Under the pieces are notes generated by a model. It had not been told where the DNA came from, did no database searches, and saw nothing but the letters and a program-made list of their open reading frames with translations. This document shows, piece by piece, positions 120-45,258 of a DNA stretch of 64,000 nt. The translations under genes and the position numbers were made by a program. The stretch comes from an uncultured Gammaproteobacteria bacterium (GTDB taxonomy: Bacteria > Patescibacteriota > Patescibacteriia > S139-126). Every line of letters starts with the position of its first letter. Within the stretch, counting starts at the first letter, position 1. The stretch spans positions 384,037-448,036 of the forward strand of contig CAZBLW010000001.1 in the NCBI GenBank assembly GCA_964493305.1, read 5' to 3'.

Positions 120-1166
120 ATGGCTAGGACTAATAAAAATAATGCTAGTAATATTATGGAGATAAATCCCTGGGATATTAAATTGTCCGAGTTTCCAAAA
201 TCAGGTAGTTTGACTGAAAAAATCCAATTTATTTTGTCATTGGCAATTTTAGCACCATCAACTCACAATAGTCAGCCCTGGTTATTTCGTCTGCAAGGCG
301 ATATTTGTCAGGTTGAGGTCGATACGAGTATTAAGTTGCCCAACTCAGACCCAACGGGAAGGGATTTGTATATCAGCCATGGCTGTTTAGCTGAGGCTAT
401 CGAGCAGGTGGCAAATTATTTTGGCTTTAGCTGTGTTTTTCAGTTTATTGATAATAATAATCTTATTTTTCAAGTCCAGTTTATCCCTAGTGAAGCTGAG
501 GTTAGTAAAAAAAGTATGATTGAAGCTTTGCTTAGCAGGGTAAATGTAAGAGGTATGTTTGACAAAAAAGAAATACCGGCTCAACTTAATGAACAACTAA
601 CAATTTATTCAGATGAACAAGTCAAATTTGTTTTATTGTCAGGTAAAGACAAAACAAAATATTTAGCCCAACTGACTGCTCAAGCAATTGCTGAAGCTCA
701 CAATAATAAAAATTTTCGTTACGAGCTATCTCAGTGGATGCGACCTAGTCTAACTAAAAAATTAGATGGCCTAGTTGGCTACAATTTACGTATTCCGTTT
801 TTACTGTCGTTTATCTTTCCACCTTTAATCAAATTATTAAACCTGGGTAAATTATTTGCTCAACTTAACCGTCAAGCCATAGCCAGTGCTCCAGCGGCTG
901 GGATTATGTTATCACCAGAGGATACACCTATTAGTTGGTGGCAAGTTGGTCGACGTTTTTTTAGACTAAATTTATATCTTAATTCAATCGGATTAAGAAC
1001 CTCAATTTATGTCGGAGCGATTGAAATAGGTAATCATCGTGCAGAGTTAAAAAAATTTATCAACACTGATTGGCTGCCGCAATTTTCTTTTGTAGTTGGT
1101 TATATGTCAGGCAATTTCCGTCATAGCCCCCGCTATAATTTAAAGTCAAGATTAATCCATGACTAA
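120..1166 (+). CDS. nitroreductase-family oxidoreductase (SagB-type dehydrogenase-like), 348 aa
   Basis: N-terminal motif APSTHNSQPW is typical of the nitroreductase/SagB family. No SD is visible. The stop overlaps the next gene start by 8 nt. Confidence 0.55.
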   Translation: MARTNKNNASNIMEINPWDIKLSEFPKSGSLTEKIQFILSLAILAPSTHNSQPWLFRLQGDICQVEVDTSIKLPNSDPTGRDLYISHGCLAEAIEQVANYFGFSCVFQFIDNNNLIFQVQFIPSEAEVSKKSMIEALLSRVNVRGMFDKKEIPAQLNEQLTIYSDEQVKFVLLSGKDKTKYLAQLTAQAIAEAHNNKNFRYELSQWMRPSLTKKLDGLVGYNLRIPFLLSFIFPPLIKLLNLGKLFAQLNRQAIASAPAAGIMLSPEDTPISWWQVGRRFFRLNLYLNSIGLRTSIYVGAIEIGNHRAELKKFINTDWLPQFSFVVGYMSGNFRHSPRYNLKSRLIHD

Positions 1167-2223
1167 ACTTAAGTTCACCAACCAAACAAAACCTTACCTA
1201 TTTAATTTGTCTAACCAAAAACAGACCGGTTTGTTTGCTAAACTCTGGCGAGATAGATCGATTAAAAAAGTTGATGAATATTCCAACCAAACGGAAGAAT
1301 ATCAAATCGTATTAGACCCAGCGGGTAGAAAAAATATAAAATCATTACCGCAGGCAATATGGGTGTATTACCCTTGGTTGAAAACTATGGTTAAAATTTT
1401 AGCTAAGCCGGCTTTTAGAAGTTTACGCTTGTCCAGAAATAATGGTTTTTTAAATACTAACCAACAGCAAAAATTTTTAAATATGAAGGTAGGGATTGCG
1501 GGTATGAATGTTGGTTATCATGCTGCTCTTTGTTTGGCTTTAGCCGGGGGTGCAGAAACCATGAAATTTGCCGATCCTGATATTTTGACCGTTTCCAGTT
1601 TAAATAGATTCCGTGCAAGTTTAAAGGATTTGGGTGGCAATAAAACAAATTTAACAGCTGAACAAGTGTATGAAATTGATCCATTTTATAAAATTGATTT
1701 ATATTCTGAAGGTATTACCACCAAAAATATTGATAAATTTTTATTAAAACCAAAAATTGATGTTTTAATTGAAGAGATGGATAATTTACCCTTAAAAGTT
1801 ATGATAAGAAAAAAAGCACGTCAACATGGTATACCAGTCATTATGGTTACTGGCAATGGAGTAAATTTGGTTTTAGATATTGAAAGATATGATATAAATA
1901 AGAGACAGAAGATACTAAATGGTTTTTTACCTGAAAAATTTTTGACAGATAATATTGTTTTATCCCAGCTAACCAAAACAGAAAAAATTAATCTGGCGAG
2001 GGATTTTATAGGTAAAAAATTTTTAGCGCCAGAACTAGTTTCGGCTTTTGCTAAGGTTGGTAAAACTTTAGCAGCTATTCCGCAGTTAGCAGAAACATCT
2101 TATTTAAGAGGGTTGGTTTTAGGGCAAGTTGTGAAAAAATTGGCCCTGGGTCAATCAGTACCAGCTGGTCGTTATCAAATAAAAATGGATAATATATTTT
2201 CCAATGAAATTAGAAAAAATTGA
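1159..2223 (+). CDS. ThiF/MoeB/HesA-family E1-like adenylyltransferase with ~110 aa N-terminal extension
   Basis: GIAGMNVGYHAALCLALAGG is a Rossmann nucleotide-binding loop. ADPDILTVSSLNRF matches the E1 motif (VDxDxVexSNLnRQ). Confidence 0.6.
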   Translation: MTKLKFTNQTKPYLFNLSNQKQTGLFAKLWRDRSIKKVDEYSNQTEEYQIVLDPAGRKNIKSLPQAIWVYYPWLKTMVKILAKPAFRSLRLSRNNGFLNTNQQQKFLNMKVGIAGMNVGYHAALCLALAGGAETMKFADPDILTVSSLNRFRASLKDLGGNKTNLTAEQVYEIDPFYKIDLYSEGITTKNIDKFLLKPKIDVLIEEMDNLPLKVMIRKKARQHGIPVIMVTGNGVNLVLDIERYDINKRQKILNGFLPEKFLTDNIVLSQLTKTEKINLARDFIGKKFLAPELVSAFAKVGKTLAAIPQLAETSYLRGLVLGQVVKKLALGQSVPAGRYQIKMDNIFSNEIRKN

Positions 2224-3271
2224 CGTAAAAAATTTTGCCGAATATAAAAATCACGAAGTGGTTTATCATTTTATTGATCCCACGGTGAAGTTGGAGGGCT
2301 ATATAGGTATTCATAATACCACCAGGGGACCAGCTACTGGTGGCACGAGGTGGTGGTATTATCAAGATAAAAACGATGCAATTAGAGATGTTTTGGATTT
2401 ATCTCAAGCCATGACTAACAAGTGCTTAATGGCTGATTTAAATTTTGGCGGTGGTAAGGCAGTTATCTTAAAACAAGGAGAAAAAACACCAGCCTTACTT
2501 ACTGCTTATGCGCAGGTAATTGATAGTTTAGCTGGTATTTTTACTACTGGTCCTGATGTAGGTATTGATGAAGAAGATACTTTGTTTATGTCAAAATTTA
2601 GTAAATATATTTTAGGTCATAAGCCAGTTCAGGGAGAACGTTATAGTACATCTGATATGGCTGCTAGAGGTGTGTATGTCGCAATTAAGTCAACTATAAA
2701 AAAAGTTACTGGTCAGACAAATTTAAATAATATATCCGTAGCCATAAAAGGTTTAGGTAAAGTAGGAGGTGAGTTGGCTAGATTGTTATTGGCTGATGGT
2801 AGTGAAGTTTATGGTTCCGAAATTGATCAACCGCGACTCGATTATATTGTGGCCAATTTACCAGGAATAAAGATCGTAGCTCCAGATAAAATTTCTACTC
2901 TACCCGTAACTATTTATTCACCTTGTGCAGTAGGTCATGAGTTCAATGAAGAAAATATAAAAAATATCACCGCTCAATATATTATTGGTGGTGCCAATAA
3001 TCAGTTGACTTCGGACAAAGTGGGTGATTATTTTCATAATCAGGGTATTTTATACGCACCAGATTATGTTGTTAACGCCGGTGGCCTCATCAATATAACC
3101 GATGAATTAGCTGAAGATGGTTATTCGGCTGATCGAGTGTTGACCAGAGTCAATAATATTGGACAAACCTTAGTAGCTATTATTGATAGATCAAAACGCG
3201 ACAATTTACCCACTTACAAAGTAGCTGATCTTTTAGCAACTGATAAATTAAATTTTTCTTATGCCCAATAA
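2204..3271 (+). CDS. Glu/Leu/Phe/Val-family amino acid dehydrogenase
   Basis: GGGK catalytic lysine motif (LNFGGGKAV). NAD-binding GLGKVGGELARLL. Confidence 0.7.
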   Translation: MKLEKIDVKNFAEYKNHEVVYHFIDPTVKLEGYIGIHNTTRGPATGGTRWWYYQDKNDAIRDVLDLSQAMTNKCLMADLNFGGGKAVILKQGEKTPALLTAYAQVIDSLAGIFTTGPDVGIDEEDTLFMSKFSKYILGHKPVQGERYSTSDMAARGVYVAIKSTIKKVTGQTNLNNISVAIKGLGKVGGELARLLLADGSEVYGSEIDQPRLDYIVANLPGIKIVAPDKISTLPVTIYSPCAVGHEFNEENIKNITAQYIIGGANNQLTSDKVGDYFHNQGILYAPDYVVNAGGLINITDELAEDGYSADRVLTRVNNIGQTLVAIIDRSKRDNLPTYKVADLLATDKLNFSYAQ

Positions 3272-4787
3272 GTTACTTAATTATTTTAAAGAAGTCCATC
3301 AAGATTTTTCTCACAACTATTTAATTGATTATCTTAATTTGGATTTTCCCACTGAGAGCAAAGATTTTTTAGCCATTTCTTTTGATCAGCTCCTGAAAGC
3401 AAGTCAGGAAAAACAGCTGAATTTATTTCAACAGATGGCAGCTAAAGTTCCAGCGTATAAAGATTTTTTACAAAAAAATAGTATTAAACCAGAAAAAATA
3501 GTAACTCACCAAGATTTATCAGCCGTTCCTTTTATTGATAAGAATAATTATCTCCGGCAGTACTCTATACCTGAGCTTTGTTGGCCAGGCAGTTTTCATC
3601 AACAAAATATGGTCAGTGTTAGTTCCGGATCATCCGGTGATCCTTTTTTTTGGTTTCGTTCTAGTTGGCAAGAGTTTGAAGCCACTTTGAATCATGAAAT
3701 GCTATTGCGAGATTTTTTTGCTTGTGATAATCAGCGTACGTTATTGATTGTTAGTTTTGCCATGGGCATGTATGTAGCTGGAGTTTTAACACAAAATTGT
3801 GGTCAACACATATCACAAAAAGGCTTACCTCTGACAGTAATTAGTCCCGGCATCAGTATCACCGAAAACGTAAGAATTATTAAAGAATTAGCTAAGTATT
3901 ATGATCAAATAATTATTGCTGGTTATCCGCCTCTGGTTAAGGATGTAATTGATTTTGGTCAGCAGCAAGGAATTGATTGGTCCAGTTTTAAAATTAAATT
4001 TATTTTTGCCGGCGAGGGTTTTAGTGAGAAATGGCGCCAAACTTTACTGCACAAAGCGGGAGTAACTGATTTAGTCAAAGATAGTTTTAGTATTTATGGC
4101 TCGGCTGATGCAAATATGTTGGCCTTTGAAACAATTTTGTCAATCAAAATTAGACAGTTAGTTGATGCTGATAGTAAGAAATATTCTGACTTTTACGATC
4201 AACAAAATAGATTACCTGGTATATTCCAATTCAATCCATTGAGTCGTTACTTTGAACAGTTGGCGGATGAACTGATTTTTTCCGCTGATAGTGGTATACC
4301 GTTGTTGAGATACAACATTCATGATGTGGGCAAGGTTATTGGTTTTACTGATATGCAAGCTAAAATAGGTAATGAACATTTTGCGGGCAATAATTATTCT
4401 TGGCCATTTGTATTGCTGTACGGCAAAGATAAAACCATAAGTTTTTACGGTTTATTAATTTACCCTGATAATATTAGAATTGCTTTAGAAAACGATGTTC
4501 TAAAAGAAAAAGTTTCGGGGCGGGTTTTATTTGCTAGAAAAGAGGATGTTGAGGGCAATCATTATCTGCAAGCAGAGATAGAATTGGCACCAAAAGTTGA
4601 ACCAAATAATGATTTAGCTAGTTTAATCCAACAAGAAATTACCAAGTCTTTAAGTCAAGCCAATATGGAATATAACAAATTAAGATCTTATTTGGGTGAG
4701 CGAGCTTTGCCAAAAATTAATTTATATCCTTATGGTTCTTCAGAAATATTTTCTCGTACTAATAAACAAAATTGGTTAACCAGCTAA
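3261..4787 (+). CDS. adenylate-forming enzyme, phenylacetate-CoA ligase (PaaK) / coenzyme F390 synthetase family
   Basis: P-loop-like SSGSSGDPFFW resembles PaaK SSGTTGKP. Overlaps the previous gene by 11 nt. Confidence 0.55.
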   Translation: MPNKLLNYFKEVHQDFSHNYLIDYLNLDFPTESKDFLAISFDQLLKASQEKQLNLFQQMAAKVPAYKDFLQKNSIKPEKIVTHQDLSAVPFIDKNNYLRQYSIPELCWPGSFHQQNMVSVSSGSSGDPFFWFRSSWQEFEATLNHEMLLRDFFACDNQRTLLIVSFAMGMYVAGVLTQNCGQHISQKGLPLTVISPGISITENVRIIKELAKYYDQIIIAGYPPLVKDVIDFGQQQGIDWSSFKIKFIFAGEGFSEKWRQTLLHKAGVTDLVKDSFSIYGSADANMLAFETILSIKIRQLVDADSKKYSDFYDQQNRLPGIFQFNPLSRYFEQLADELIFSADSGIPLLRYNIHDVGKVIGFTDMQAKIGNEHFAGNNYSWPFVLLYGKDKTISFYGLLIYPDNIRIALENDVLKEKVSGRVLFARKEDVEGNHYLQAEIELAPKVEPNNDLASLIQQEITKSLSQANMEYNKLRSYLGERALPKINLYPYGSSEIFSRTNKQNWLTS

Positions 4788-4790
4788 TGT

Positions 4791-6389
4791 ATGTCTGACT
4801 TAGTTTTTCTTAGTTTAATTTTTACCGTACTAGCCAATTTAACTTTGATTATTGTTGTATATTTCTACGGTAAAAAAAATATCAATCAAATTTTCTTTGT
4901 CCTACTGGTTTTGTCACTTACTTTTTGGGGAGTAAATAATTTTTTTTCAGTAACCGCTAAACCCGAGCAGTCATTGTTTTGGATTCGGTCGGTAATGTTT
5001 TTTGCTGCTCCTCAGACTTTTTTGTTGTATTTATTTATATCCACTTTTGCTTATAAAGCCTGGGATTTTTCGAAATGGGGCAAATATTTTCTAGTTAGTT
5101 TGTGTTTTTTGATGATGTTGTTGACGCACACTCCTTTTATTTTTTCTTCCATCGTAATTGCAGGCAATGGACAAGTTTCGCCACAGCCGGGTTTACTCAT
5201 GCCCCTGCTCGGTGGTTATATATTTATTTTTGCTTTGTTATCAGTTTATAAATTGGTTAAAAGATACAGAAAGTCTTCAGGACAAGAAAGGAAACAGTGG
5301 CAGTATTTATCTTTTGGTTTGTTTTGGACTTTTTTATTGATGCTCAGTTTAAATTATTTGGCGGTTATAGTTTTCAATAACACCAATTTTGTTCGTTATG
5401 GTCACTTATATCATCTACCGTTGATTGTTTTGTTTTCTTATAGTTTGGTAAAGCATAAATTGATGGATGTAAAATTAATAGCTTCGCAATCTTTAACCAT
5501 TTTACTTTCTTTGTTTTTATTATTTAAAGTACTGACTTCGGAAGATACGGTGAATTTAGTGATTAATATGGTGATTTTTACAGTAGTGGTGATAATTAGT
5601 ATTTGGTTGGTGCGCAATATTAATAAAGAAATAAAACAAAGAGAAAAACTTGAAATATTAACAAAAGATTTGCAAGTTGCTAATGAACGACTAAAAAAAT
5701 TAGACGAAGCCAAAACAGAATTTTTATCAATAACCTCGCACCAATTACGCACTCCTTTATCGGCTATTAAGGGTTATTTATCTATGTTGCAAGAGGGTGA
5801 TTTTGGTAAGATGTCCAAAAAACAAGCGGATATCGTGGGTATTTTACTGAGGAATTCAGAGCGTTTAATTCGATTAATCAATATCTTTTTAAATATTTCC
5901 CGTATAGAATCTGGAAGATTGAAAATAAATAAAAGTTTAAATGATATCAGTCGTTTACTTGATGATATTATCAAGTCATTGGCTATTGAGGCCGGTACTA
6001 AGCATATTAAGATTGAGTTTGAAGAAAACGACGTTCCCTTGTTTCAGTTTGATATGGACAAAATGGCTGACGTACTTATCAATTTGATTGACAATGCTAT
6101 TAAATATACTCCTATCGGTGGTTGGGTTAGGGTGTCTGTAAAAAATATGGAAAAATATGTATTAGTCAAAGTCCAGGACAACGGCAAAGGTATTTCTTAT
6201 GAAGAATTGGATCAATTGTTCCAAAAATTTAAACGAGGTAAGGATATTAATCGAGTTGACACAACTGGAGTGGGATTGGGTTTATATATTGCTAAAAAAA
6301 TTATTGAAGGACACGGGGGAAATATTTGGGCAGAAAGCGAAGGCGAAAATAAAGGCACTACTTTTAAATTTACCTTGCCTCTAGAATGA
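4791..6389 (+). CDS. membrane sensor histidine kinase (about 7 TM helices N-terminal, HisKA + HATPase_c)
   Basis: H-box ITSHQLRTPLSAIKGY, N-box LIDNAIKYT, G-boxes VQDNGKGIS and GTGLGLYIAKKI. No response regulator is adjacent. Confidence 0.85.
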   Translation: MSDLVFLSLIFTVLANLTLIIVVYFYGKKNINQIFFVLLVLSLTFWGVNNFFSVTAKPEQSLFWIRSVMFFAAPQTFLLYLFISTFAYKAWDFSKWGKYFLVSLCFLMMLLTHTPFIFSSIVIAGNGQVSPQPGLLMPLLGGYIFIFALLSVYKLVKRYRKSSGQERKQWQYLSFGLFWTFLLMLSLNYLAVIVFNNTNFVRYGHLYHLPLIVLFSYSLVKHKLMDVKLIASQSLTILLSLFLLFKVLTSEDTVNLVINMVIFTVVVIISIWLVRNINKEIKQREKLEILTKDLQVANERLKKLDEAKTEFLSITSHQLRTPLSAIKGYLSMLQEGDFGKMSKKQADIVGILLRNSERLIRLINIFLNISRIESGRLKINKSLNDISRLLDDIIKSLAIEAGTKHIKIEFEENDVPLFQFDMDKMADVLINLIDNAIKYTPIGGWVRVSVKNMEKYVLVKVQDNGKGISYEELDQLFQKFKRGKDINRVDTTGVGLGLYIAKKIIEGHGGNIWAESEGENKGTTFKFTLPLE

Positions 6390-6433
6390 CCACGACTTGT
6401 GGATATCTTTGCAGTAGGCAATTTTTTAACTTT

Positions 6434-6442
6434 TGCTATAAT
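6434..6442 (+). promoter_or_regulatory. extended -10 promoter element TGcTATAAT
   Basis: TGn plus TATAAT sits about 45 nt upstream of the acidic micro-ORF. No good -35 is present, which is acceptable for extended -10 promoters. Confidence 0.4.
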
Positions 6443-6487
6443 TTTGTTAAGTAGTAAATTAGTTAATTTAATTATTAATATTTAAAT

Positions 6488-6613
6488 ATGTCCAATGACG
6501 ACTTTATGAAGGAAGATGACAATGAAGAAGAGGGTTATGAAGATGATTTCGAAGATGAAGACGAAGATGATATGTCGGATGATATGAACGAAGATGAAGA
6601 CGAAGATATGTAG
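6488..6613 (+). CDS. 41-aa highly acidic micropeptide (MSNDDFMKEDDNEEEGYEDDFEDEDEDDMSDDMNEDEDEDM)
   Basis: Intact ATG..TAG ORF below the ORF-track cutoff. It lies between its own promoter-like element and a strong intrinsic terminator. Its 41 residues are overwhelmingly Asp/Glu. Confidence 0.4.
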   Translation: MSNDDFMKEDDNEEEGYEDDFEDEDEDDMSDDMNEDEDEDM

Positions 6614-6624
6614 ATCTAATATTG

Positions 6625-6652
6625 CCCCGGCTTAGGCCGGGGTTTATTTTTT
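6625..6652 (+). terminator. rho-independent terminator (CCCCGGC-TTAG-GCCGGGG + T-run)
   Basis: Perfect 7-bp GC stem followed by TTTATTTTTT. Confidence 0.75.
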
Positions 6653-6714
6653 GACCAATGCTGGTTTATTTGTTATATTGTCGGAAAATACTTTAACATA
6701 ATAAGGAGAGATAA

Positions 6715-7032
6715 ATGAATAATCTGTATGATGTTACTACTTTACCACAAGATTTTGTGGAAATAATCACTAATTTTTTAACCAAATTAAACCAAACCGG
6801 GGCAGTATTTTTTTATCCTGATGAACAAAAATTGATGTTAGGCGAAGCTTACGGTGATAAGCACATGTATAATTTGGCTGATTTTTTTAGCGAGCTGCTC
6901 GATCTCAATGATTTAGTATATTTAATCAGAGTGGCTATATGTCAGCAACATTTTACAGTTTATACCGTAGCTGCCGAAGCAAATATTGAGCGGCACGAAA
7001 ATTACCGCACCATTTTTATTAGGGCATATTAA
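6715..7032 (+). CDS. hypothetical protein, 105 aa
   Basis: Good SD (AAGGAG, 6 nt spacing). The stop is embedded in a terminator hairpin. Confidence 0.5.
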   Translation: MNNLYDVTTLPQDFVEIITNFLTKLNQTGAVFFYPDEQKLMLGEAYGDKHMYNLADFFSELLDLNDLVYLIRVAICQQHFTVYTVAAEANIERHENYRTIFIRAY

Positions 7033-7046
7033 TGCCCTTTTTTTAT
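7022..7046 (+). terminator. rho-independent terminator (GGGCAT-ATTA-ATGCCC + T8)
   Basis: Hairpin followed by TTTTTTTT. Confidence 0.65.
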
Positions 7047-7060
7047 TTTATAAAAACGAT

Positions 7061-7594
7061 ATGATTATAGATATGCTACCCACAATTTTTTTAATTTTAA
7101 TTATTTTGGTAACATTCGGTTTTGTTAGAGGCAGTACCTCTTTGGCCCCCTGGGTGCCAACTAAAACCAAAGATTATCAGCGTATAAATAACCTAATCAG
7201 ACAGCAACAAACGAAAAAATTTGTTGATTTAGGTTGTGGTAGTGCAGGTTTGATTGTGTATTTAGCTAAACAAAATCCTGCAATCCAATTTGTCGGTGTA
7301 GAGATTGCCTGGCCATTATTTTTGTTTGCTTGGTGTCGAGTTAAGTTATTGGGTCTAAAAAATATAAAAATTTATTATCAAGATTTATTTAGTTTAAATT
7401 TATCTGAATACGATACAATATTTGTTTATGGTTATCCGCGCAGTATTAAAAAAAGATTATCAGACAAGATTAAACTGGAGTTGAAGTCAGATGCAATTTT
7501 ACTGTCTTATGTTTTTAAGTTTCATGAACTAAATTTATTTAGGCTTGATAAACCCGGACAGGAATTTTTGCCAATTTATATTTATAAAAACTAG
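7061..7594 (+). CDS. class I SAM-dependent methyltransferase with N-terminal TM anchor
   Basis: Motif I VDLGCGSAGL. The start was refined to the ATG at 7061, downstream of the 7022-7046 terminator. The ORF track begins at 6986, overlapping the previous gene. Confidence 0.55.
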   Translation: MIIDMLPTIFLILIILVTFGFVRGSTSLAPWVPTKTKDYQRINNLIRQQQTKKFVDLGCGSAGLIVYLAKQNPAIQFVGVEIAWPLFLFAWCRVKLLGLKNIKIYYQDLFSLNLSEYDTIFVYGYPRSIKKRLSDKIKLELKSDAILLSYVFKFHELNLFRLDKPGQEFLPIYIYKN

Positions 7595-7630: not shown

Positions 7631-8824
7631 ATGAAACTAAAAACTTTAAATAAGACGACAAAGTTATGCGGGAAAAAAGTTTTACTCAGGGTAGATTTGA
7701 ACGTCAAGTTAGGATCAGACAAAAAGGTTGATCAAAAGGAAGATTTTAAATTGCAAAGAATATTACCGACTATAAAATATTTACAAACCCAAGGGGCTAA
7801 AATAATTTTACTGTCCCATTTAGGTCGTCCCAATGGTCGGGTGGTGCCAACTTTGTCATTACAACCGGTAGTTGATAGGTTAATTACTTTATTGGCGCAA
7901 AATATCAAGTTAATAAAAAAACAGCCTTGGTTAGATATAAAAAAGCAAATCGACCAGTTAGTAAATGGTCAGATTGTTGTTTTAGAAAACTTACGCTTTT
8001 TTAAAGGAGAAGATACCAACGATAATATTTTGGCAAAACAGTTAGCGAGTTTGGGTGATATTTATGTCAATGATGCTTTTGCTGCTTGTCATCGTGAGGC
8101 AGCTTCAATGGTAGCAATTACCAAATTTTTACCGACCTATGCCGGTTGGTTAATGGCCAGCGAAGTTCAACAGTTGAGTAGCTTAATAAATAAGAAAACT
8201 AAACCCTATCTGACAATTTTGGGTGGAGCCAAAATTAGTACCAAAATTGATTTGGTGGCCAAATTTGTCAAAATATCTGACTATGTTTTAGTAGGTGGGG
8301 GATTGGCCAATAATTTTTTATTAGCTGATGGTAAATCAATAGGCAAATCAATTGTAGAAAAAAAATATTTAAGTAAACTAAAAAAAGTTTTACGGCAAAA
8401 TCGTAAAAAAATCTTATTACCAATTGACGTGACGGTTGATAAGACAACTACCAAGTTGGTGGAAGCAACACAAAAACTAGTTGGTGATATAAAAAAAGAC
8501 GAAAAAATCATTGATATTGGAACAAACACAGTTAGATCCTGGTCACAAATAATCAAGCGAGCAAAATTGATAGTTTGGAATGGTCCTTTAGGAATCGTCG
8601 AAGATAGGAAAGCTAGTCATGCTTCACGAGCCTTAGCTGAGTTGATTGCTGCTAGGTCAAAGCGAGCGTGTTTCAGTGTCGTTGGTGGGGGAGAAACTGT
8701 TTGGTTAATTCAGGACATGAATATTTTTGATAGTTTTGATTACGTATCAACTGGCGGGGGAGCAATGATAGAATTTTTAGAAGGCAAAACTTTGCCAGGG
8801 ATTAAACCTTTATTAAAAAAATGA
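7631..8824 (+). CDS. pgk: phosphoglycerate kinase
   Basis: KVLLRVDLNV and ILLSHLGRP signatures. Confidence 0.9.
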   Translation: MKLKTLNKTTKLCGKKVLLRVDLNVKLGSDKKVDQKEDFKLQRILPTIKYLQTQGAKIILLSHLGRPNGRVVPTLSLQPVVDRLITLLAQNIKLIKKQPWLDIKKQIDQLVNGQIVVLENLRFFKGEDTNDNILAKQLASLGDIYVNDAFAACHREAASMVAITKFLPTYAGWLMASEVQQLSSLINKKTKPYLTILGGAKISTKIDLVAKFVKISDYVLVGGGLANNFLLADGKSIGKSIVEKKYLSKLKKVLRQNRKKILLPIDVTVDKTTTKLVEATQKLVGDIKKDEKIIDIGTNTVRSWSQIIKRAKLIVWNGPLGIVEDRKASHASRALAELIAARSKRACFSVVGGGETVWLIQDMNIFDSFDYVSTGGGAMIEFLEGKTLPGIKPLLKK

Positions 8825-9321
8825 TCAAAAAAGGTTTTACTTTGATTGAAGTTTTAGTAGTCATAGCTATTATCGGAGTTTTGAGTACTCTGACAGTAGT
8901 GGCTGTAAGATCTGCTAGAGAAAAAGCAAAAATTGCTAAAGCCCAACACGATATTGATACTATTTATACCGCTATGTCACAGTTGATGATTGATACTGGT
9001 GAATGGCCCAACCACCAAACTCCTGAAGAAATAAATACCGGTGGTAATAACGAAATTTGGGATTTAACAGCAGCCGTAGCTGGTATTGTAGTCACTGATG
9101 GCGGTTATTTAAAATGGGCCGGACCTTATATGGGCAGTATACCGCTTGATCCTTGGGGTAATAATTATTTTTTTGACACTGACTATTCTTTAAATTCCGA
9201 TGAAAAACCTTGTGCTGGCGGAAGCGGTTGTCACAACGGGGCGGTAGTTGGTTCTTTTGGGCCTGATGGTGTTGGGCAAAATGTCTATAATCAAGATGAT
9301 ATAATTAAAATTCTAAAATAA
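8821..9321 (+). CDS. type IV pilin / pseudopilin-like protein (prepilin N-terminal methylation motif)
   Basis: KKGFTLIEVLVVIAIIGVL is a class III signal peptide. A C-terminal Cys pair lies in CAGGSGCHNG. ATGA overlap with pgk. Confidence 0.8.
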   Translation: MIKKGFTLIEVLVVIAIIGVLSTLTVVAVRSAREKAKIAKAQHDIDTIYTAMSQLMIDTGEWPNHQTPEEINTGGNNEIWDLTAAVAGIVVTDGGYLKWAGPYMGSIPLDPWGNNYFFDTDYSLNSDEKPCAGGSGCHNGAVVGSFGPDGVGQNVYNQDDIIKILK

Positions 9322-10617: not shown

Positions 10618-12198
10618 ATGAACAACACTACTACCAACCGAAAACCTAATGTTTTAATTGTGATTGATGGTTTAGGTATAGCCAATGATCAACCTGACAA
10701 CCCTGTGGAAATGGCCAATACCCCCACCTTTAAATTGTTGTGGGAAAAATATTACCACACCTCATTAGCTGCTGCCGGTGAAGACGTTGGCCTAATGCCC
10801 AATCAAGATGGTAACAGCGAAGCTGGTCATATGAATATTGGTGCTGGTAGAGTTGTTGGTCAAGATGTTTCCCTTATTAATCACAGCATAGCTGACGGTA
10901 CTTTTTTTAAAAATTCTGCATTTATCGCAGCTATTTCTCATGTCCAAAAAAACAATAGTAATTTACATCTCATGGGTTTATTGTCAGATCGACACTCGGG
11001 CCATGTTAACCCCAAGCATTTAGAAGCATTACTAACTCTGATACGCCAGCACAATTTAAAAAACAATGTGTATTTACATTTATTTACCGACGGTAGAGAT
11101 ACGCCCAAACACGCCGGACTTGGTTTTTTACGAACTTTGGAAGAACAACTTCAGCCCCATGAACGGATCGCCACTATTATGGGTCGGGTTTTATTGGATC
11201 GCAAAAAAAACTGGCTCAAGACCAAGGTAGCCTATGAAGCTCTGACCATGGGAATCGGTAAAATTGTTTCTAAACCAGAAAAAGCCATTCGCGAAGCTTA
11301 TGCCTGCGGTGAAACTGATGAATTTATCAGTCCGACCATTATCAGTTTGGATAACGATCCCAGTTATGGTCGAATTAATGATAATGATGCGATAATTTTT
11401 TATAATTTACGTTCTGATCGTGCTAGACAATTGACTAAACCTTTTGTTCAAGTAGAATTTGAAACCAAAAATAAAGATTCTTTTACGCGAAAAAAACTCT
11501 TGAAAAATTTGGTTTTTGTGGCCATGACTGATTTTGGACCTGATCTTGATCATGTTTTAACTGCCTATCCGTCAGCTGATATTTCTGGTACCCTGCCTAA
11601 CGCTTTGCGCAATCTAAAACAACTTTATATTGCTGAGGGTGAAAAGTATGCTCATATTACTTATTTTTTCAATGGTGGACACGATCGACCGGTTGCAGGA
11701 GAAGACAGGATTTTTGTACCTTCTCCAAATGTAGATTCCTATGATCAAACCCCGGAAATGTCGGCCAATAAAATTACCGAAATTGTAATTGATAATATTA
11801 AACAAAATCAATATGACTTTTATGCCATCAATTTTGCCAATCCAGATATGATTGGTCATACCGGTAATTTAGGAGCAGCTATCAAAGCTATTGAGTGTGT
11901 TGATAAAAATATTGGTCTTATTTTACAAGAGGTAATAGCGCGTGATGGTCTTTTATTTATTACAGCTGATCACGGCAACGTTGAGGAGATAATAAATGTT
12001 CAAACTGGCGAAATTGATACCGAGCACTCTAGTAACCCCGTACCTTTTTTTATTGCCACCAATCATCAGATTTATCCGACACACAAGTTACCGAACGGGC
12101 GCTTGGCTGATGTAGCACCGACAATTTTGTCAGCTATGAATATACCTAAAACCAGAGAAATGACAGGTAAAAATTTATTAGCACCGTCGAGTATATGA
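10618..12198 (+). CDS. gpmI: 2,3-bisphosphoglycerate-independent phosphoglycerate mutase (iPGM), copy 1
   Basis: NSEAGHMNIGAGR catalytic Ser motif. DGRD and TADHGN metal-site motifs. Confidence 0.85.
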   Translation: MNNTTTNRKPNVLIVIDGLGIANDQPDNPVEMANTPTFKLLWEKYYHTSLAAAGEDVGLMPNQDGNSEAGHMNIGAGRVVGQDVSLINHSIADGTFFKNSAFIAAISHVQKNNSNLHLMGLLSDRHSGHVNPKHLEALLTLIRQHNLKNNVYLHLFTDGRDTPKHAGLGFLRTLEEQLQPHERIATIMGRVLLDRKKNWLKTKVAYEALTMGIGKIVSKPEKAIREAYACGETDEFISPTIISLDNDPSYGRINDNDAIIFYNLRSDRARQLTKPFVQVEFETKNKDSFTRKKLLKNLVFVAMTDFGPDLDHVLTAYPSADISGTLPNALRNLKQLYIAEGEKYAHITYFFNGGHDRPVAGEDRIFVPSPNVDSYDQTPEMSANKITEIVIDNIKQNQYDFYAINFANPDMIGHTGNLGAAIKAIECVDKNIGLILQEVIARDGLLFITADHGNVEEIINVQTGEIDTEHSSNPVPFFIATNHQIYPTHKLPNGRLADVAPTILSAMNIPKTREMTGKNLLAPSSI

Positions 12199-13766
12199 AA
12201 GCACACACCCCCGTAGTATTAGTAGTACTTGATGGTTGGGGAATAGCCCCACCTTCCATCGGTAATGCCATCACCTTAGCACAAACCCCGAACTACGACA
12301 GTTTTTTATTGAACTATCCTTCTTTTAATATTCAAGCCTCAGGCGAATCAGTAGGTCTACCTTGGGGAGAAATGGGTAATTCGGAAGTAGGTCATTTATC
12401 CTTAGGGTCAGGTAAAATTTTATATCAAAATTTACCTCGTATTACTAGAGCAATTTCCGATGGTAGTTTTGTAACCAATGCAGCTTTTGAGCAAGCCTTT
12501 GAACACGTTAAACAAAACAATTCCAAATTACACATTATCGGTTTGGTTTCTGATGGTGGTGTGCATAGTTATAATGAACATCTATATGCACTTATTGAAA
12601 CCGCCAAATTAAATAAAGTGAAACAACTTTATATTCATGCTTTTTTGGACGGCAGAGATACAGCTAAAAATAGCGGTTTAGGTTATATTGTTGCTTTACA
12701 AAAAGTTTTACATAATGTTGGTTTGGGTAGAATCGCCACAATTTCTGGTAGGTTTTATGCCATGGATCGAGATAATCGTTGGGATAGAATTGCCGCTACT
12801 TATAATGCCATGGTATTGGGTCAAGCCGCGGCAAGTTATCAAGATCCAATAGAAGCAGTTAATCAATCTTATCAGCAAGGTGTATTTGATGAAGAGTTTG
12901 TGCCCACGATAATTTTAGATACACAGAACCAACCAACAGTAGTTGGTGACAATGATGCCATTATTTACTTTAATTTCCGTAGCGACCGAGCTAGGGAACT
13001 AACTAAAGCGTTGGTATTAAGTGATTTTAATGGATTTGCCAGGGAGAAAGTGTGTCAAAATGTATTTTTTGTAACTATGACCGAATATGAAAAAGATTTG
13101 CCAGTAACCATAGCTTTTCCTCCTGAGGTTGTTTCTATGCCCTTGGCTAAGGTGATAGCTGAAAATGGTGGCAAACAGGTTCATATAGCCGAAACTGAAA
13201 AATATGCTCACGTTACTTTTTTCTTCAACGGAGGTATTGAGAAACCATTTACTGGTGAGGAACATATCATGGTGCCGTCTCCTAAAATTTCTAGTTATGA
13301 TAAAAAACCGGAAATGTCTGCTTATGATGCCACCAAAAAATTATTAGCAGCCATCAATCAAGGTGATTATATGTTTTTATTGATCAATTATGCCGCGCCG
13401 GATATGGTGGCTCATACCGGAAATTTAGCAGCCACAATTAAAGGCATTGAAGCGGTTGATGATTGTTTAGGAAAAATCGCTGAAGCCGTATTGGGGCGAG
13501 ATGGAGTTTTGTTAATTACCGCTGATCACGGCAATGCTGAAGAATTAATCAAACTTCGTAGCGGCGAAATCGACAAAGAGCACTCGTCATCACCCGTACC
13601 ATTTTTGATCATTGGTAATCAATGGTTAGGGCAAGGAAGGTTAGCCAATAAGAACGAACTTTATGCTAGCACTCCGGTGGGAGTTTTAGCTGATGTAGCT
13701 CCCACAATTTTAACACTGTTGAATTTACCCATCCCTCCAGAAATGACTGGTAAATCATTATTATAA
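12195..13766 (+). CDS. gpmI: 2,3-bisphosphoglycerate-independent phosphoglycerate mutase (iPGM), divergent tandem paralog
   Basis: MGNSEVGHLSLGSG, DGRD and TADHGN motifs. ATGA overlap with copy 1. Confidence 0.85.
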   Translation: MKAHTPVVLVVLDGWGIAPPSIGNAITLAQTPNYDSFLLNYPSFNIQASGESVGLPWGEMGNSEVGHLSLGSGKILYQNLPRITRAISDGSFVTNAAFEQAFEHVKQNNSKLHIIGLVSDGGVHSYNEHLYALIETAKLNKVKQLYIHAFLDGRDTAKNSGLGYIVALQKVLHNVGLGRIATISGRFYAMDRDNRWDRIAATYNAMVLGQAAASYQDPIEAVNQSYQQGVFDEEFVPTIILDTQNQPTVVGDNDAIIYFNFRSDRARELTKALVLSDFNGFAREKVCQNVFFVTMTEYEKDLPVTIAFPPEVVSMPLAKVIAENGGKQVHIAETEKYAHVTFFFNGGIEKPFTGEEHIMVPSPKISSYDKKPEMSAYDATKKLLAAINQGDYMFLLINYAAPDMVAHTGNLAATIKGIEAVDDCLGKIAEAVLGRDGVLLITADHGNAEELIKLRSGEIDKEHSSSPVPFLIIGNQWLGQGRLANKNELYASTPVGVLADVAPTILTLLNLPIPPEMTGKSLL

Positions 13767-20801: not shown

Positions 20802-20829
20802 TTGACATCGTATTTTAATGTGTTACAAT
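20802..20829 (+). promoter_or_regulatory. sigma70-type promoter TTGACA-N16-TGtTACAAT (extended -10) for rplJ-rplL
   Basis: Near-consensus -35 and extended -10, about 140 nt upstream of rplJ. Confidence 0.6.
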
Positions 20830-20835
20830 ATTTTT

Positions 20836-20967
20836 ACACCGCAGACAATAGGTTCTATATTGATTAATGCAAGTTTTTGCGCCTATCGAGGTCACAATCC
20901 TTTTTTTGGATCTAGGTCGAGTACCAAGTAAAAGTCTGCGTTTTAACGCAGTTTTTTGTTTATATTT
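20836..20967 (+). promoter_or_regulatory. rplJ (L10) leader with terminator-like attenuator hairpin at 20936-20957
   Basis: About 130-nt 5-prime UTR. CTGCGTT-TTAA-AACGCAG plus TTTTTTG sits just upstream of the rplJ start. This is consistent with L10(L12)4 autoregulatory leaders. Confidence 0.4.
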
Positions 20968-32323: not shown

Positions 32324-32398
32324 TGGTACCGGTACGGGGAATCGAACCCCGATTACCAGGATGAGAACCTGGCGTCCTAACCGTTAGACGATACCGGC
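32324..32398 (-). tRNA. tRNA-Glu (anticodon CTC) with encoded CCA
   Basis: Minus-strand cloverleaf: GCCGGTA acceptor, D-loop AACGGTTA, anticodon stem CCAGG/CCTGG with loop TTCTCAT, T-arm CGGGG-TTCGATT-CCCCG, then ACCA. Confidence 0.8.
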
Positions 32399-43352: not shown

Positions 43353-43957
43353 AAGATGATATCCAGTATGTAGTCTTTGATATTTATGGGGTAATCATAA
43401 CTGCTGGCCACAATATTAGGGATATATTATTTCCGATATTTCCTAAACACAAAAGTCATCGTTTTAGTCGTCGTATCTATCACTATTATGCAGAAAATAA
43501 ACTAAAACGAGCCAACTTTTGGTCACTACTGGGAAATTTTGATAGTTCTTTGGAAAATAAATTTTATGAACGACATCGTTTGGATAAAGATTTTTATCAA
43601 GTTATTGAGCAGTTAAAAAAGCAAAGTAAAAAATTGTATATTTTATCCAATATTCCTCAGGAATGGTCAGAATATTTAAATAAAAAGTTTAAGTTTGATA
43701 AGTATTTTTCTGGTACTGTTTTTTCTTGGCAAGTTGGTAAACGTAAGCCCGATCCAAAAATTTTTAACTATTTAGTTAAAAAATATACTTTACCAGTAGG
43801 TAAAACTTTGTTTATTGATGATAATATTGATAATATTAGAATGGCTAAACGTTTGGGTTTTAGGACTTGTTGGTTCAATCGAGATAAGATCGACCTTAAA
43901 CCCACTAGTGCCGATTTTATAATCAATGAATTAAAAAAATTAATAGAAATTATATGA
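43340..43957 (+). CDS. HAD-IA family hydrolase with variant motif I (DIYG)
   Basis: Motif I VVFDIYGVI, motif II YILSN, motif III KRKPDP, motif IV FIDDNIDN. Confidence 0.6.
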   Translation: MAKIKDDIQYVVFDIYGVIITAGHNIRDILFPIFPKHKSHRFSRRIYHYYAENKLKRANFWSLLGNFDSSLENKFYERHRLDKDFYQVIEQLKKQSKKLYILSNIPQEWSEYLNKKFKFDKYFSGTVFSWQVGKRKPDPKIFNYLVKKYTLPVGKTLFIDDNIDNIRMAKRLGFRTCWFNRDKIDLKPTSADFIINELKKLIEII

Positions 43958-45246
43958 AAAAATTTACCACTTCATATCAGGGTTTTATAGATCAAAAATA
44001 CAAACCCAATTTAGACAAAGAATTTTTAGTTACTTATCATGTTAAACCTACTCCGGGGCAAACATTTGAAACGGTTGCCGAGGCCATAGCTGGTGAATCA
44101 TCAATAGGTACTTGGACTCATTTGGAAACTCTCTCGGTTGCTACTAAAACAAAATTAACACCTCATGTCTATGTAGTTGATAAAAATCGTGGTTTTATAA
44201 AAATTGCTTATCCTTTAGCATTGTCTGAAATTGGTAATCTACCCCAGTTATTGTCCTTTTTAGGTGGTAATATATTTAGCATGAAAATAGTCGACCGTTT
44301 ACGTTTGGAAGATATTGAGTTTCCCAAAAAATATATTAATGCTTGCTTAGGTCCTTATCATGGCATAGCCGGTATCAGAAAAATAATGAATGTTAAACAA
44401 AGAGCCTTAGTTGGCAGTATAATCAAGCCCAAAGTTGGTTTGGATGTAACTGAAACCGCTGCGGTTGCTTATGAAACCTGGCGGGGTGGGGTAGATGTAA
44501 TTAAAGATGATGAAAATTTAACTTCACTGGTTTTCAATAATTTTAATGATCGCGTTGATCAATTAATAGCTACTAGAAAAAAGGTTGAAAAAGAAACTGG
44601 CGAAAAAAAAGTTTTTGTTTTCAATATAACCGCTCCTTATGATGTTGCGCTACAAAGAGCTCGTTATGTAAAAAAAAGAGGAGGACGAGTGGTTATGGTT
44701 GATATTGTCGCTATGGGTTGGTCAGCTATTCAAACCATCAGAAAACAAAATTTAGGCCTAATCTTACATGGTCACCGGGCGGGACATAGTATGTTTACCA
44801 AAGATCCTAGTCACGGGATGAGTATGTTGGTGCTGGCAAAGTTATCCAGACTTGCCGGTATTGATCAATTACATACCGGTACAGTGGTTGGTAAAATGGA
44901 AGGCACGGCTCATGAGGTTGATTCTTTGAATGATTTTTTGCGAGAGGATGGCGGAGAAATTGATTATTTAAGAGAGAATTGGTCAAAATTAAAACCAGTA
45001 ATGCCAATTGCCTCAGGCGGGCTACATCCCGGCTTGGCCGCGGAACTGATAAAAATTTTGGGTCGTAATTTAATTATTAATTTCGGTGGTGGTATTCATG
45101 GTCATCCCAACGGTTCTTTTGCTGGTGCTGTTGCTGCTCGTGACGCGGTTGAAGCAGCTTCTCTGGGAGCAAATTTACATACCTATGCCAAAAATAGACC
45201 AGAGTTAAAAACAGCTCTTGAGTATTGGTCTAATGTAAAAAATTAA
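43954..45246 (+). CDS. rbcL: ribulose-1,5-bisphosphate carboxylase large subunit, form II/III type
   Basis: GGVDVIKDDE, IKPKVGLD, ILHGHRAGH and the GG loop. Confidence 0.85.
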   Translation: MKKFTTSYQGFIDQKYKPNLDKEFLVTYHVKPTPGQTFETVAEAIAGESSIGTWTHLETLSVATKTKLTPHVYVVDKNRGFIKIAYPLALSEIGNLPQLLSFLGGNIFSMKIVDRLRLEDIEFPKKYINACLGPYHGIAGIRKIMNVKQRALVGSIIKPKVGLDVTETAAVAYETWRGGVDVIKDDENLTSLVFNNFNDRVDQLIATRKKVEKETGEKKVFVFNITAPYDVALQRARYVKKRGGRVVMVDIVAMGWSAIQTIRKQNLGLILHGHRAGHSMFTKDPSHGMSMLVLAKLSRLAGIDQLHTGTVVGKMEGTAHEVDSLNDFLREDGGEIDYLRENWSKLKPVMPIASGGLHPGLAAELIKILGRNLIINFGGGIHGHPNGSFAGAVAARDAVEAASLGANLHTYAKNRPELKTALEYWSNVKN

Positions 45247-45258
45247 TAATTAATAAAA

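Follow-up and report, generated by a model that had tools for sequence, protein, structure and literature searches.

A predicted polyacidic micro-protein gene with its own promoter and terminator in a Patescibacteria genome

The stretch of DNA considered here (the window: 64,000 nucleotides, positions 384,037 to 448,036 of contig CAZBLW010000001.1, assembly GCA_964493305.1; guanine plus cytosine content 33%) comes from an uncultured bacterium of the Patescibacteria, the candidate phyla radiation (CPR). In the 325-nt gap between a histidine-kinase gene and the gene of an orphan 105-amino-acid (aa) protein lies a micro open reading frame (micro-ORF), which encodes a peptide made up mostly of Asp and Glu. 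Its features, those of its neighbours and the corresponding places in related lineages are collected in Table 1.

The micro-ORF and its signals

The peptide contains 15 Asp, 11 Glu, 5 Met and a single Lys. Asp and Glu (D/E) make up 63% of its residues, the acidic residues begin at position 4, and the net charge is approximately -25 over the 41 residues. Neither His nor Cys is present, and neither a hydrophobic or transmembrane segment nor a signal peptide was found in the peptide sequence. In all other 41-aa stretches, taken from every ORF of the window, the D/E content does not exceed 29%, and the peak in 20 shuffled versions of the window is 23%; no small ORF with at least 45% D/E was found in 835 kb of unrelated genomic loci. 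The composition of the micro-ORF is an extreme outlier, far beyond chance. Since an in-frame TAA, read off the sequence, stands four codons upstream, the ATG at 6488 is the first possible start. Owing to an imperfect four-codon tandem repeat in the ORF, the acidic runs are interrupted at intervals of about 4-5 residues by Met or another bulky residue. In a single-sequence AlphaFold2 (AF2) prediction the peptide has no secondary structure (pTM 0.12, pLDDT 61). It would appear to be intrinsically disordered, which this model weakly supports.

An earlier note on this DNA had described a stand-alone, monocistronic 41-aa gene of mostly Asp and Glu, with an extended -10 box about 45 nt upstream and a GC hairpin terminator about 10 nt downstream. 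Each of these elements was recovered, and the unit that they form recurs in five loci with codon periodicity and frame-preserving insertions and deletions, as described below. In a promoter scan the promoter of the micro-ORF has 10 of 12 consensus matches, the TG being present, and the extended -10 TGCTATAAT sits 45 nt 5' of the ATG. Promoter-like matches as a class do not exceed chance in the region (14, against 13.4 expected from shuffled sequence), and TATAAT is invariant across all five orthologous loci. Judged from the position of this box, transcription would start near 6449, and a start there would give a short mRNA of about 200 nt. Further upstream, the motif TGTGGATA(TCTTT) is equally placed in the window and in the related loci L012, L099 and L101, the L096 copy being truncated. 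Its form in the window, TGTGGATATCTTT, is possibly an activator or UP-like site, and a regulator of the micro-protein promoter could bind there.

The terminator hairpin, GCCCCGGC-TTAG-GCCGGGGT at 6624-6643, is followed by TTATTTTTT and starts 10 nt past the stop codon. It folds at -17.6 kcal/mol (z = -3.2). A hairpin with a U-run is present in 5/5 loci, with stem sequences that are all different and folding energies of -11.3 to -22.7 kcal/mol, and the distance from the stop codon to the terminator stem is 6-13 nt across the five species (manual counts). Since the next gene has its own promoter, the micro-ORF is not a leader of that gene. An equivalent next-gene promoter, a TTGAC -35-like hexamer with a -10-like box, can be seen by eye in 3/4 orthologous loci; in L101 the site consists by eye of an extended -10-like box, TGCTATACT, alone.

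Table 1. Features of the micro-ORF region in the window and of the corresponding places in related lineages. Kinase identity is to the histidine kinase of the window.
Locus	Feature	Coordinates	Strand	Kinase identity	Details
Window	HisKA_7TM histidine-kinase gene	4791-6389	+		Pfam HisKA_7TM, HisKA, HATPase_c; last gene of a five-gene operon
Window	Upstream motif TGTGGATATCTTT	6398-6410	+		abuts the histidine-kinase stop codon, about 30 nt 5' of the -10 box
Window	Sigma-70-type promoter	6415-6442	+		-35-like TAGGCA (6415-6420), 16-nt spacer, extended -10 TGCTATAAT (6434-6442)
Window	Palindrome TTAATTATTAA	6468-6478	+		in the 5' untranslated region, exactly 9 nt before the ATG
Window	Micro-ORF	6488-6613	+		ATG to TAG, 41 codons plus stop; encodes MSNDDFMKEDDNEEEGYEDDFEDEDEDDMSDDMNEDEDEDM
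Window	Imperfect 12-nt (4-codon) tandem repeat	6539-6607	+		inside the micro-ORF; Tandem Repeats Finder (TRF) period 12, 5.5 copies
Window	Intrinsic terminator	6624-6653	+		8-bp GC-rich stem, 4-nt loop, U-run
Window	Separate promoter of the next gene	6651-6679	+		TTGACC, 17-nt spacer, TATATT, with TG
Window	Orphan 105-aa protein gene	6715-7032	+		strong Shine-Dalgarno sequence, own promoter-like site
L096	Peptide MSNDDFMDEDNIEDDTEEGTEEEDSEDDSDEDMDEDSDEDM			68%	directly after the kinase
L096	Orphan-family gene	4225-4617			
L012	Peptide MPNEDFMMEDDNEEEDNIEEGLEDEMDDDMDDDMDEMDEDEDM			58%	directly after the kinase
L012	Orphan-family gene	8001-8324			
L099	Peptide MSNEDFLTGDDMEEEGTDEEDMDEEDMDEDIDDEDEDM			55%	directly after the kinase
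L099	Orphan-family gene	5944-6291			
L101	Peptide MDEDMTQDTQEEEINDDMGDDDMSDDMDDDMGDDDMSDDMGDE			49%	directly after the kinase
L097/L098	Slot after the kinase	5594-5819 (L097), 5399-5624 (L098)		63%	promoter-like CGTATAAT kept, no acidic ORF
L102	Slot after the kinase	5688-5909		64%	another 73-aa ORF, moderately acidic, probably disordered, without TTAATWATTAA
L103	Slot after the kinase	6615-7212		42%	stand-alone receiver-domain gene
L104	Slot after the kinase			43%	no gap after the kinase

No Shine-Dalgarno (SD) sequence precedes the micro-ORF. In the window, SD-like motifs stand before 9.5% of 63 gene starts, as against 13% of internal ATGs and 14.5% of random intergenic windows, which is no enrichment over the controls. 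Since the SD is rare in this genome, its absence is no objection to translation. A palindrome, TTAATTATTAA, stands in the leader of the micro-ORF, and TTAATWATTAA-N9-ATG is present in all five orthologues; the distance between palindrome and -10 box varies from about 22 to 27 nt among the five species (manual counts). Because the palindrome is spaced from the start codon and not from the promoter, it is more likely translational than transcriptional.

TTAATWATTAA occurs three times in the 64 kb, the other two copies lying at 45070 and 45243. TTAAT or ATTAA stands before 27-33% of gene starts, as against 5-7% of internal ATGs and 9-12% of intergenic windows; it is thus 3-5 fold enriched 5' of start codons, often paired as a palindrome. 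TTAAT.{0,3}ATTAA is found upstream of the uS4, bL12, uS13 and AMP-phosphorylase genes (gene starts e.g. 21503, 45259, 52827 and 53678). From its placement, the palindrome is probably an SD-independent translation-initiation element, and its company suggests that the micro-ORF has the initiation context of highly expressed genes. TTAAT/ATTAA may be a lineage-specific translation-initiation signal.

Orthologues and coding character

Relatives of the micro-ORF were found by synteny: orthologues of the upstream kinase were identified and their contigs inspected. This route was chosen since the peptides are absent from the protein collection. Nine lineages were informative; the contig of a further one, L108 (kinase P0013), stops at the kinase gene and is uninformative for the micro-ORF. 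Five loci were compared, namely the window, L012, L096, L099 and L101. The whole unit of promoter, ORF and terminator is kept in the four other species. In all five, the peptide gene lies directly 3' of the kinase orthologue, and the gene on its other side varies.

The five peptides are 38-43 aa long, with 56-63% D/E and at most one basic residue (Lys, Arg or His). An N-terminal motif, M-[SP]-N-[DE]-D-F-[ML], is found in 4/5 of them, and a block of three Glu near residue 13 is common to the polyacidic peptides. The C-terminal half consists of four-residue units of the type [DE]3-M, and the C-terminus is ...EDEDM in four peptides; that of L101 reads ...MGDE. Met accounts for 4-8 of about 41 residues per peptide at positions that are not strictly conserved, and the L096 peptide has just two Met in its C-terminal half. 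Period-12 arrays are present also in the ORFs of L012 and L101, the latter with a 39-nt duplication that is 95% identical.

The five intergenic regions were aligned with MAFFT on nucleotides alone, that is, the alignment was not guided by protein. In the ORF, the invariant columns by codon position number 21/20/4 (chi-square p = 0.002), and the mean pairwise identities by codon position are 0.77/0.74/0.46; the 5' and 3' flanks have no codon periodicity. All alignment gaps in the ORF are of 3 or 6 nt. The invariant parts of the alignment are TATAAT, the palindrome and the first two bases of GAN codons; the start, the stop and the initiation element are likewise conserved and stay in register. 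At equal evolutionary distances the flanking intergenic DNA has diverged much further than the ORF. In a codon alignment, dN/dS is 0.10-0.38 in the pairs with estimable dS, synonymous sites being at or beyond saturation. GAC is mildly over-used in comparison with the neighbouring genes (p = 0.057 in the window, p = 0.006 in L101). Conservation of the reading frame in relatives and Ka/Ks across homologues had both been named as checks in the earlier note, and both came out in favour of a coding gene. On these patterns, a real protein-coding gene is very likely, and the ORF is seen to be under purifying selection to stay polyacidic.

The unit might also be something other than a protein gene, namely a purine-rich small RNA (sRNA) or a GAW microsatellite that evolves neutrally and happens to sit between promoter and terminator. 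A promoter, about 200 nt and a terminator do resemble a classic sRNA gene; GAW repeats are stop-free in frame by construction, the repeat unit is 12 nt, and translation is here deduced from sequence alone. However, three-base periodicity of the kind found in the ORF is missing from the flanks, dN/dS is well below 1 with synonymous sites saturated, the signals for start, stop and initiation keep their register, and the flanking DNA is far more diverged at the same distances. A neutral repeat is disfavoured because codon positions 1 and 2 are fixed while position 3 is randomised. The predicted transcript body is unstructured (z = -0.84), no conserved RNA structure besides the terminator was found among the five loci, and no Rfam family reached the gathering score for the micro-ORF unit (best E = 0.15, a fraction of the threshold). 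The earlier note had considered an sRNA in view of the missing SD. The SD is indeed absent, but the rarity of SD motifs before the genes of the window, the TTAAT...ATTAA element and the lack of an Rfam match or RNA structure make the sRNA reading highly improbable.

The gene appears to be confined to a small group. In the lineages without it (Table 1), fragments such as CAAGATGATAAA in the slot of L097/L098 may be remnants, suggesting gene loss or decay. The 73-aa ORF of L102 would be either a diverged homologue or a replacement. In L103, the intergenic DNA upstream of the receiver-domain gene holds a duplicated piece of the N-terminus of the regulator (…KTKILIIEDD…), which looks like a partial tandem duplication. 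Overall, the polyacidic family is young, narrow and dispensable.

Closer relatives add little variation. Gene calls include exactly this peptide on 14 Logan contigs; the contigs come from several sequencing runs and represent one strain or very nearly so. The earlier note had regarded the ORF as missed by the ORF track; public gene callers do call it, and it is from the protein databases that it is missing. Ten near-identical contigs have no single-nucleotide polymorphism in the 325-nt unit, a comparison without power since their overall divergence is at most 0.7%.

Sequence searches with the peptide returned nothing related. A word-indexed protein search gave no match, which is uninformative since none of the five peptides is in that collection, and phmmer gave 0 matches among 1.84 billion representatives with a query that is short and of low complexity and a library from which small proteins are probably missing. 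No family match was obtained in Pfam, NCBIfam or PADLOC. A metagenome scan with the degenerate pattern M-x-N-[DE]-[DE]-F-x-...-[DE]3 found no further member, a weak null because the L096 contig was not returned either. Three matches to the pattern were judged unrelated, two coming from loci of 58-59% GC and one being a 160-aa repeat protein. Two scans of viral contigs gave 0 relatives. A genome-contig scan using PGK gave no related genome among the matches listed, the best of which is 44% identical. In the literature, no description of such a peptide was found.

Neighbouring genes

The kinase upstream is the last gene of an operon (120-6389) whose genes overlap or abut and which encodes an Acg/Rv3131-like FMN oxidoreductase, an Rv1355c-like ThiF/E1 adenylyltransferase, a ScyB-like amino-acid dehydrogenase, a PaaK-like adenylate-forming enzyme and the HisKA_7TM kinase. 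The five genes, at places in a different order, are conserved as an operon in every related locus down to a kinase identity of 42%. Gene content and closest homologues of the window point to Patescibacteria, near Parcubacteria: homologues of the kinase carry the labels Nealsonbacteria, Wildermuthbacteria or Parcubacteria, and a RuBisCO gene stands next to one for AMP phosphorylase. TGA serves as a stop codon, since the kinase gene ends at TGA where its orthologue ends at TAG. No response regulator was found by tblastn in the 64-kb window, and no polyacidic C-terminal tail was found among the kinase orthologues, which were checked for one as a possible origin or docking analogue of the peptide.

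Downstream, the orphan gene lies beside the micro-ORF in 4/5 carriers, and the fetched flanks of the non-carriers contain no copy of it; in L101 the gene after the micro-ORF is DUF2207. The orphan family has 105-130 aa and the motifs YPDEQ, YLIR and HENY. A search with the orphan protein gave one detectable relative, no match was found in Pfam, NCBIfam or PADLOC, and a profile search of PDB sequences gave chance-level hits only. Its AF2 model is poor (pLDDT 51). The protein is acidic or neutral and is not an obvious electrostatic partner of the peptide. From its co-occurrence with the micro-ORF, it may be a functional partner.

The orphan gene is followed in the window by a TrmB-like methyltransferase gene, PGK, a pilin-like gene, enolase and two genes for cofactor-independent phosphoglycerate mutase (iPGM). 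The pilin-like gene (8821-9321), of the type IV pilin or type II secretion system G (T2SS-G) kind, lies between PGK and enolase, and the two iPGM genes after enolase (10618-13766) are tandem paralogues encoding 526 and 523 aa. The arrangement PGK-pilin-enolase-iPGM is conserved in L012. Elsewhere in the window, a gene for a homologue of the RuBisCO large subunit is immediately followed by an AMP/pyrimidine-nucleoside phosphorylase-like gene (43954-46758), a pair that represents the nucleotide-salvage RuBisCO pathway typical of CPR bacteria. The only Rfam matches above the gathering score in the window are a ribosomal protein L10 leader (20821-20967, forward strand, 49.7 bits) and a tRNA (32327-32398, reverse strand).

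Possible functions of the peptide

The roles put forward in the earlier note, namely a DNA mimic, a divalent-cation buffer, a chaperone-like partner of very basic proteins and an anti-sigma or anti-restriction decoy, would be plausible. The peptide can be compared with several known systems. The C-terminal tail of the delta subunit of Bacillus subtilis RNA polymerase, region 1.1 of sigma-70 and eukaryotic prothymosin-alpha are disordered, D/E-rich and act as nucleic-acid competitors or partners of basic proteins. All of these are domains of larger proteins or have about 110 aa, whereas the present peptides are free-standing products of 38-43 aa with a Met-periodic repeat and with their own promoter and terminator. 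The B. subtilis delta subunit is the topic of PMC7749165.

The acidic DNA mimics T7 Ocr, ArdA and Neisseria DMP12 share with the peptide a very high negative charge. Such mimics occupy the DNA-binding surface of restriction enzymes, RNA polymerase and HU; Ocr replaces DNA on restriction enzymes and RNA polymerase (PMC3439906, PMC7064336), and the acidic mimic DMP12 binds HU (PMC3643605). However, they are folded (Ocr has about 116 aa per monomer) and their carboxylates mimic the phosphates of B-DNA, whereas the peptide has 41 aa and is predicted to be unstructured. It has no similarity to any family, is chromosomal, and is conserved in a bacterial lineage rather than in phage. Since no phage-encoded relative and no defence-system match were found, an anti-restriction role is without support.

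A likeness of another kind is seen in E. coli MgtL and other N-terminal sequences rich in Asp, Glu and Pro that cause intrinsic ribosome destabilisation (IRD): these, too, are short ORFs in which an acidic nascent chain destabilises the ribosome (10.1101/2021.02.02.429294; PMC11282234). MgtL differs in being a 17-aa leader in the mgtA 5' UTR with alternative RNA structures, whereas the micro-ORF ends at a strong terminator and has no antiterminator. Going by its description, CrsL is a 5.7-kDa disordered transcription regulator of actinobacteria that was found as a partner of the essential transcription factor CarD (PMC12709188); on that description alone it is similar in being very small, disordered and lineage-restricted, and it differs in belonging to another phylum. 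Overall, the peptide is most like the polyanionic decoys, yet it is predicted to lack a folded DNA-like scaffold, and it has an MgtL-like composition without the attenuator architecture. It belongs with the small disordered polyanionic proteins and is in no described family.

The best explanation overall is a translated, monocistronic micro-protein gene of the Patescibacteria whose product acts as a polyanion, to which we give a probability of approximately 0.45. For its mechanism, action as a decoy or chaperone is favoured only tentatively, by analogy with the systems above. The peptide would be a disordered polyanion, its short N-terminal motif (MSN[DE]DF[ML]) serving for recognition and its C-terminal half repeating [DE]3-M, and would act in trans as an electrostatic decoy or chaperone by occupying a basic, nucleic-acid- or phosphate-binding surface of a putative partner. 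Since the peptide packs a net charge of about -25 into 41 residues, its most economical mode of action would be to bind a basic surface electrostatically. Candidate partners are an HU-like protein, a ribosomal protein or RNA polymerase, and possibly the adjacent kinase or the orphan protein; the last two are candidates by linkage, and neither is compelling. The N-terminal DF[ML] and the bulky Met, Phe and Tyr may confer binding specificity; the bulky residues may also, or instead, prevent ribosomes from aborting within the acidic runs.

Several points weigh against this explanation. Known DNA mimics are folded and have about 80-120 aa or more, as opposed to a disordered peptide of 41 aa. No basic protein is encoded next to the gene, and the neighbouring orphan is itself acidic. 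The gene is dispensable, being absent from four other lineages with a kinase orthologue: it is missing from L097/L098, L103 and L104, and L102 holds a different ORF of 73 aa. The case for coding rests on five sequences that are phylogenetically non-independent, on low-complexity alignments that are uncertain and on dS values that are saturated, and a 12-nt repeat unit keeps the frame by itself during expansion. Transcript, peptide and partner are predictions made from the DNA. Furthermore, N-terminal D/E-rich sequences abort translation in E. coli (10.1101/2021.02.02.429294), and efficient synthesis cannot be assumed.

This last point leads to a different role, in which translating the ORF is itself the function. 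The D/E-rich nascent chain would abort ribosomes depending on Mg2+ or on the state of the ribosome; the share of ribosomes arriving at the stop codon, 10 nt ahead of the terminator, would tune termination, read-through or mRNA stability or set the dose of peptide, or the yield of peptide would report Mg2+. The ORF resembles the most IRD-prone class in its acidic run from residue 4, its D/E content and its 41 codons. In E. coli, consecutive N-terminal acidic residues abort translation, the more so at low Mg2+, and bulky residues or a longer nascent chain counteract the effect (10.1101/2021.02.02.429294); EttA rescues ribosomes paused at acidic residues in the first 30 residues of a protein (PMC11282234). 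The short distance from stop codon to terminator stem is kept in 5/5 species, and a terminating ribosome might disturb the hairpin. Bulky Met, Phe and Tyr are spread through the acidic runs.

However, the centroid structure contains the terminator hairpin only, the GA-rich ORF having no complementary segment from which an antiterminator could form. Classical attenuation was rejected for want of an antiterminator structure. In the window, moreover, a separate promoter-like site precedes the next gene, with similar sites seen by eye in the orthologues, and the identity of that gene varies (the orphan in four species, DUF2207 in L101). Conservation of the N-terminal motif and of the C-terminal EDEDM points to selection acting on the completed peptide, and the phenomenon is known from E. 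coli, whereas the ribosomes here are those of CPR bacteria. It is therefore unlikely that the ORF is a stand-alone IRD sensor of free Mg2+ or ribosome integrity, or, alternatively, that reduced CPR ribosomes together with periodic Met, Phe and Tyr represent a natural way to translate a polyacidic sequence. Irrespective of function, it may be the periodic Met, Phe and Tyr that make the sequence translatable.

The position of the gene raises another possibility, namely that the peptide is an accessory factor of the adjacent HisKA_7TM kinase and modulates signalling by binding the kinase or its unlinked response regulator. Known proteins of this sort are MgrB and SafA, which act on PhoQ, and Sda, which acts on KinA. 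They bind their sensor kinase directly, have fewer than 70 aa and come from separate small genes, and the micro-ORF is syntenic with a kinase. None of the three is polyacidic, MgrB and SafA being membrane proteins and Sda a folded helical hairpin. Small-protein regulators of kinases are well documented (PMC8404706, PMC10576120). The place directly 3' of an orthologous kinase is constant in 5/5 carriers while the other flank varies, the 64-kb window encodes no response regulator, and the more distant relative L103 has a stand-alone receiver-domain gene in the same slot. On the other hand, four other kinase orthologues are without the peptide, the gene is transcribed from a promoter of its own rather than together with the kinase, and synteny within one narrow clade may be an inherited position. 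The peptide has neither the transmembrane segment of MgrB and SafA nor a predicted helix, and none of the kinase orthologues has a polyacidic tail as a hint of a docking site. An accessory factor of the kinase is therefore doubtful.

Binding of metal ions was also considered. The carboxylates might buffer or chaperone Mg2+ or Ca2+, or the spaced Met together with carboxylates might bind Cu(I), Cu(II) or other soft metals. This would suit peptides with 56-63% D/E and at most one basic residue, in which the 12-nt repeat sets 4-8 Met of about 41 residues at intervals of 4-5; MxxM and MxxxM are Cu(I)-binding motifs of CusF, PcoC and Ctr1. Nevertheless, His and Cys are lacking, the Met positions are not strictly conserved (two in the C-terminal half in L096), no metal transporter or metal-responsive regulator is encoded nearby, and unstructured carboxylates hold Mg2+ and Ca2+ only weakly. 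On balance, a metal or cation binder is improbable.

Least convincing among the protein roles is a substrate of the upstream ThiF/E1-, Acg- and PaaK-like enzymes, either a precursor of the ribosomally synthesised and post-translationally modified peptide (RiPP) type or a Pup-like tag activated at its C-terminus or side-chain carboxylates: ThiF/E1-like, nitroreductase-like and PaaK-like enzymes are encoded in the operon that ends just upstream, the C-terminal ...EDEDM is identical in 4/5 peptides, and the pathways of microcin C7 and pantocin A each include a ThiF-like enzyme (MccB and PaaA, respectively) that modifies a small peptide. But L097/L098, L103 and L104 have kept the operon and have no peptide gene, the L101 C-terminus differs (...GDE), and the peptide gene has a separate promoter. 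Leader/core organisation, exporter, protease and immunity gene are all missing. Such a substrate is very hard to credit. The role of a RiPP precursor was largely rejected because the enzymes occur without the peptide.

The explanation preferred here thus remains a translated micro-protein acting as a polyanion. Its impact is limited by the narrow distribution of the gene, which is found in five species and lost in some. Genes of this kind stay invisible since short proteins are absent from large protein collections and low complexity defeats sequence search; in addition, trypsin would have a single Lys and no Arg to cut at, and would release hardly any fragment of use. The TTAAT-W-ATTAA element at its fixed spacing provides a handle on SD-independent initiation in Patescibacteria. 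The peptide itself is a natural test case for how the ribosomes of CPR bacteria, with their reduced genomes, cope with acidic nascent chains, and a candidate minimal polyanionic decoy or chaperone. If real, it would represent an undescribed family of bacterial micro-proteins, with a composition among the most extreme known for a free-standing gene product.

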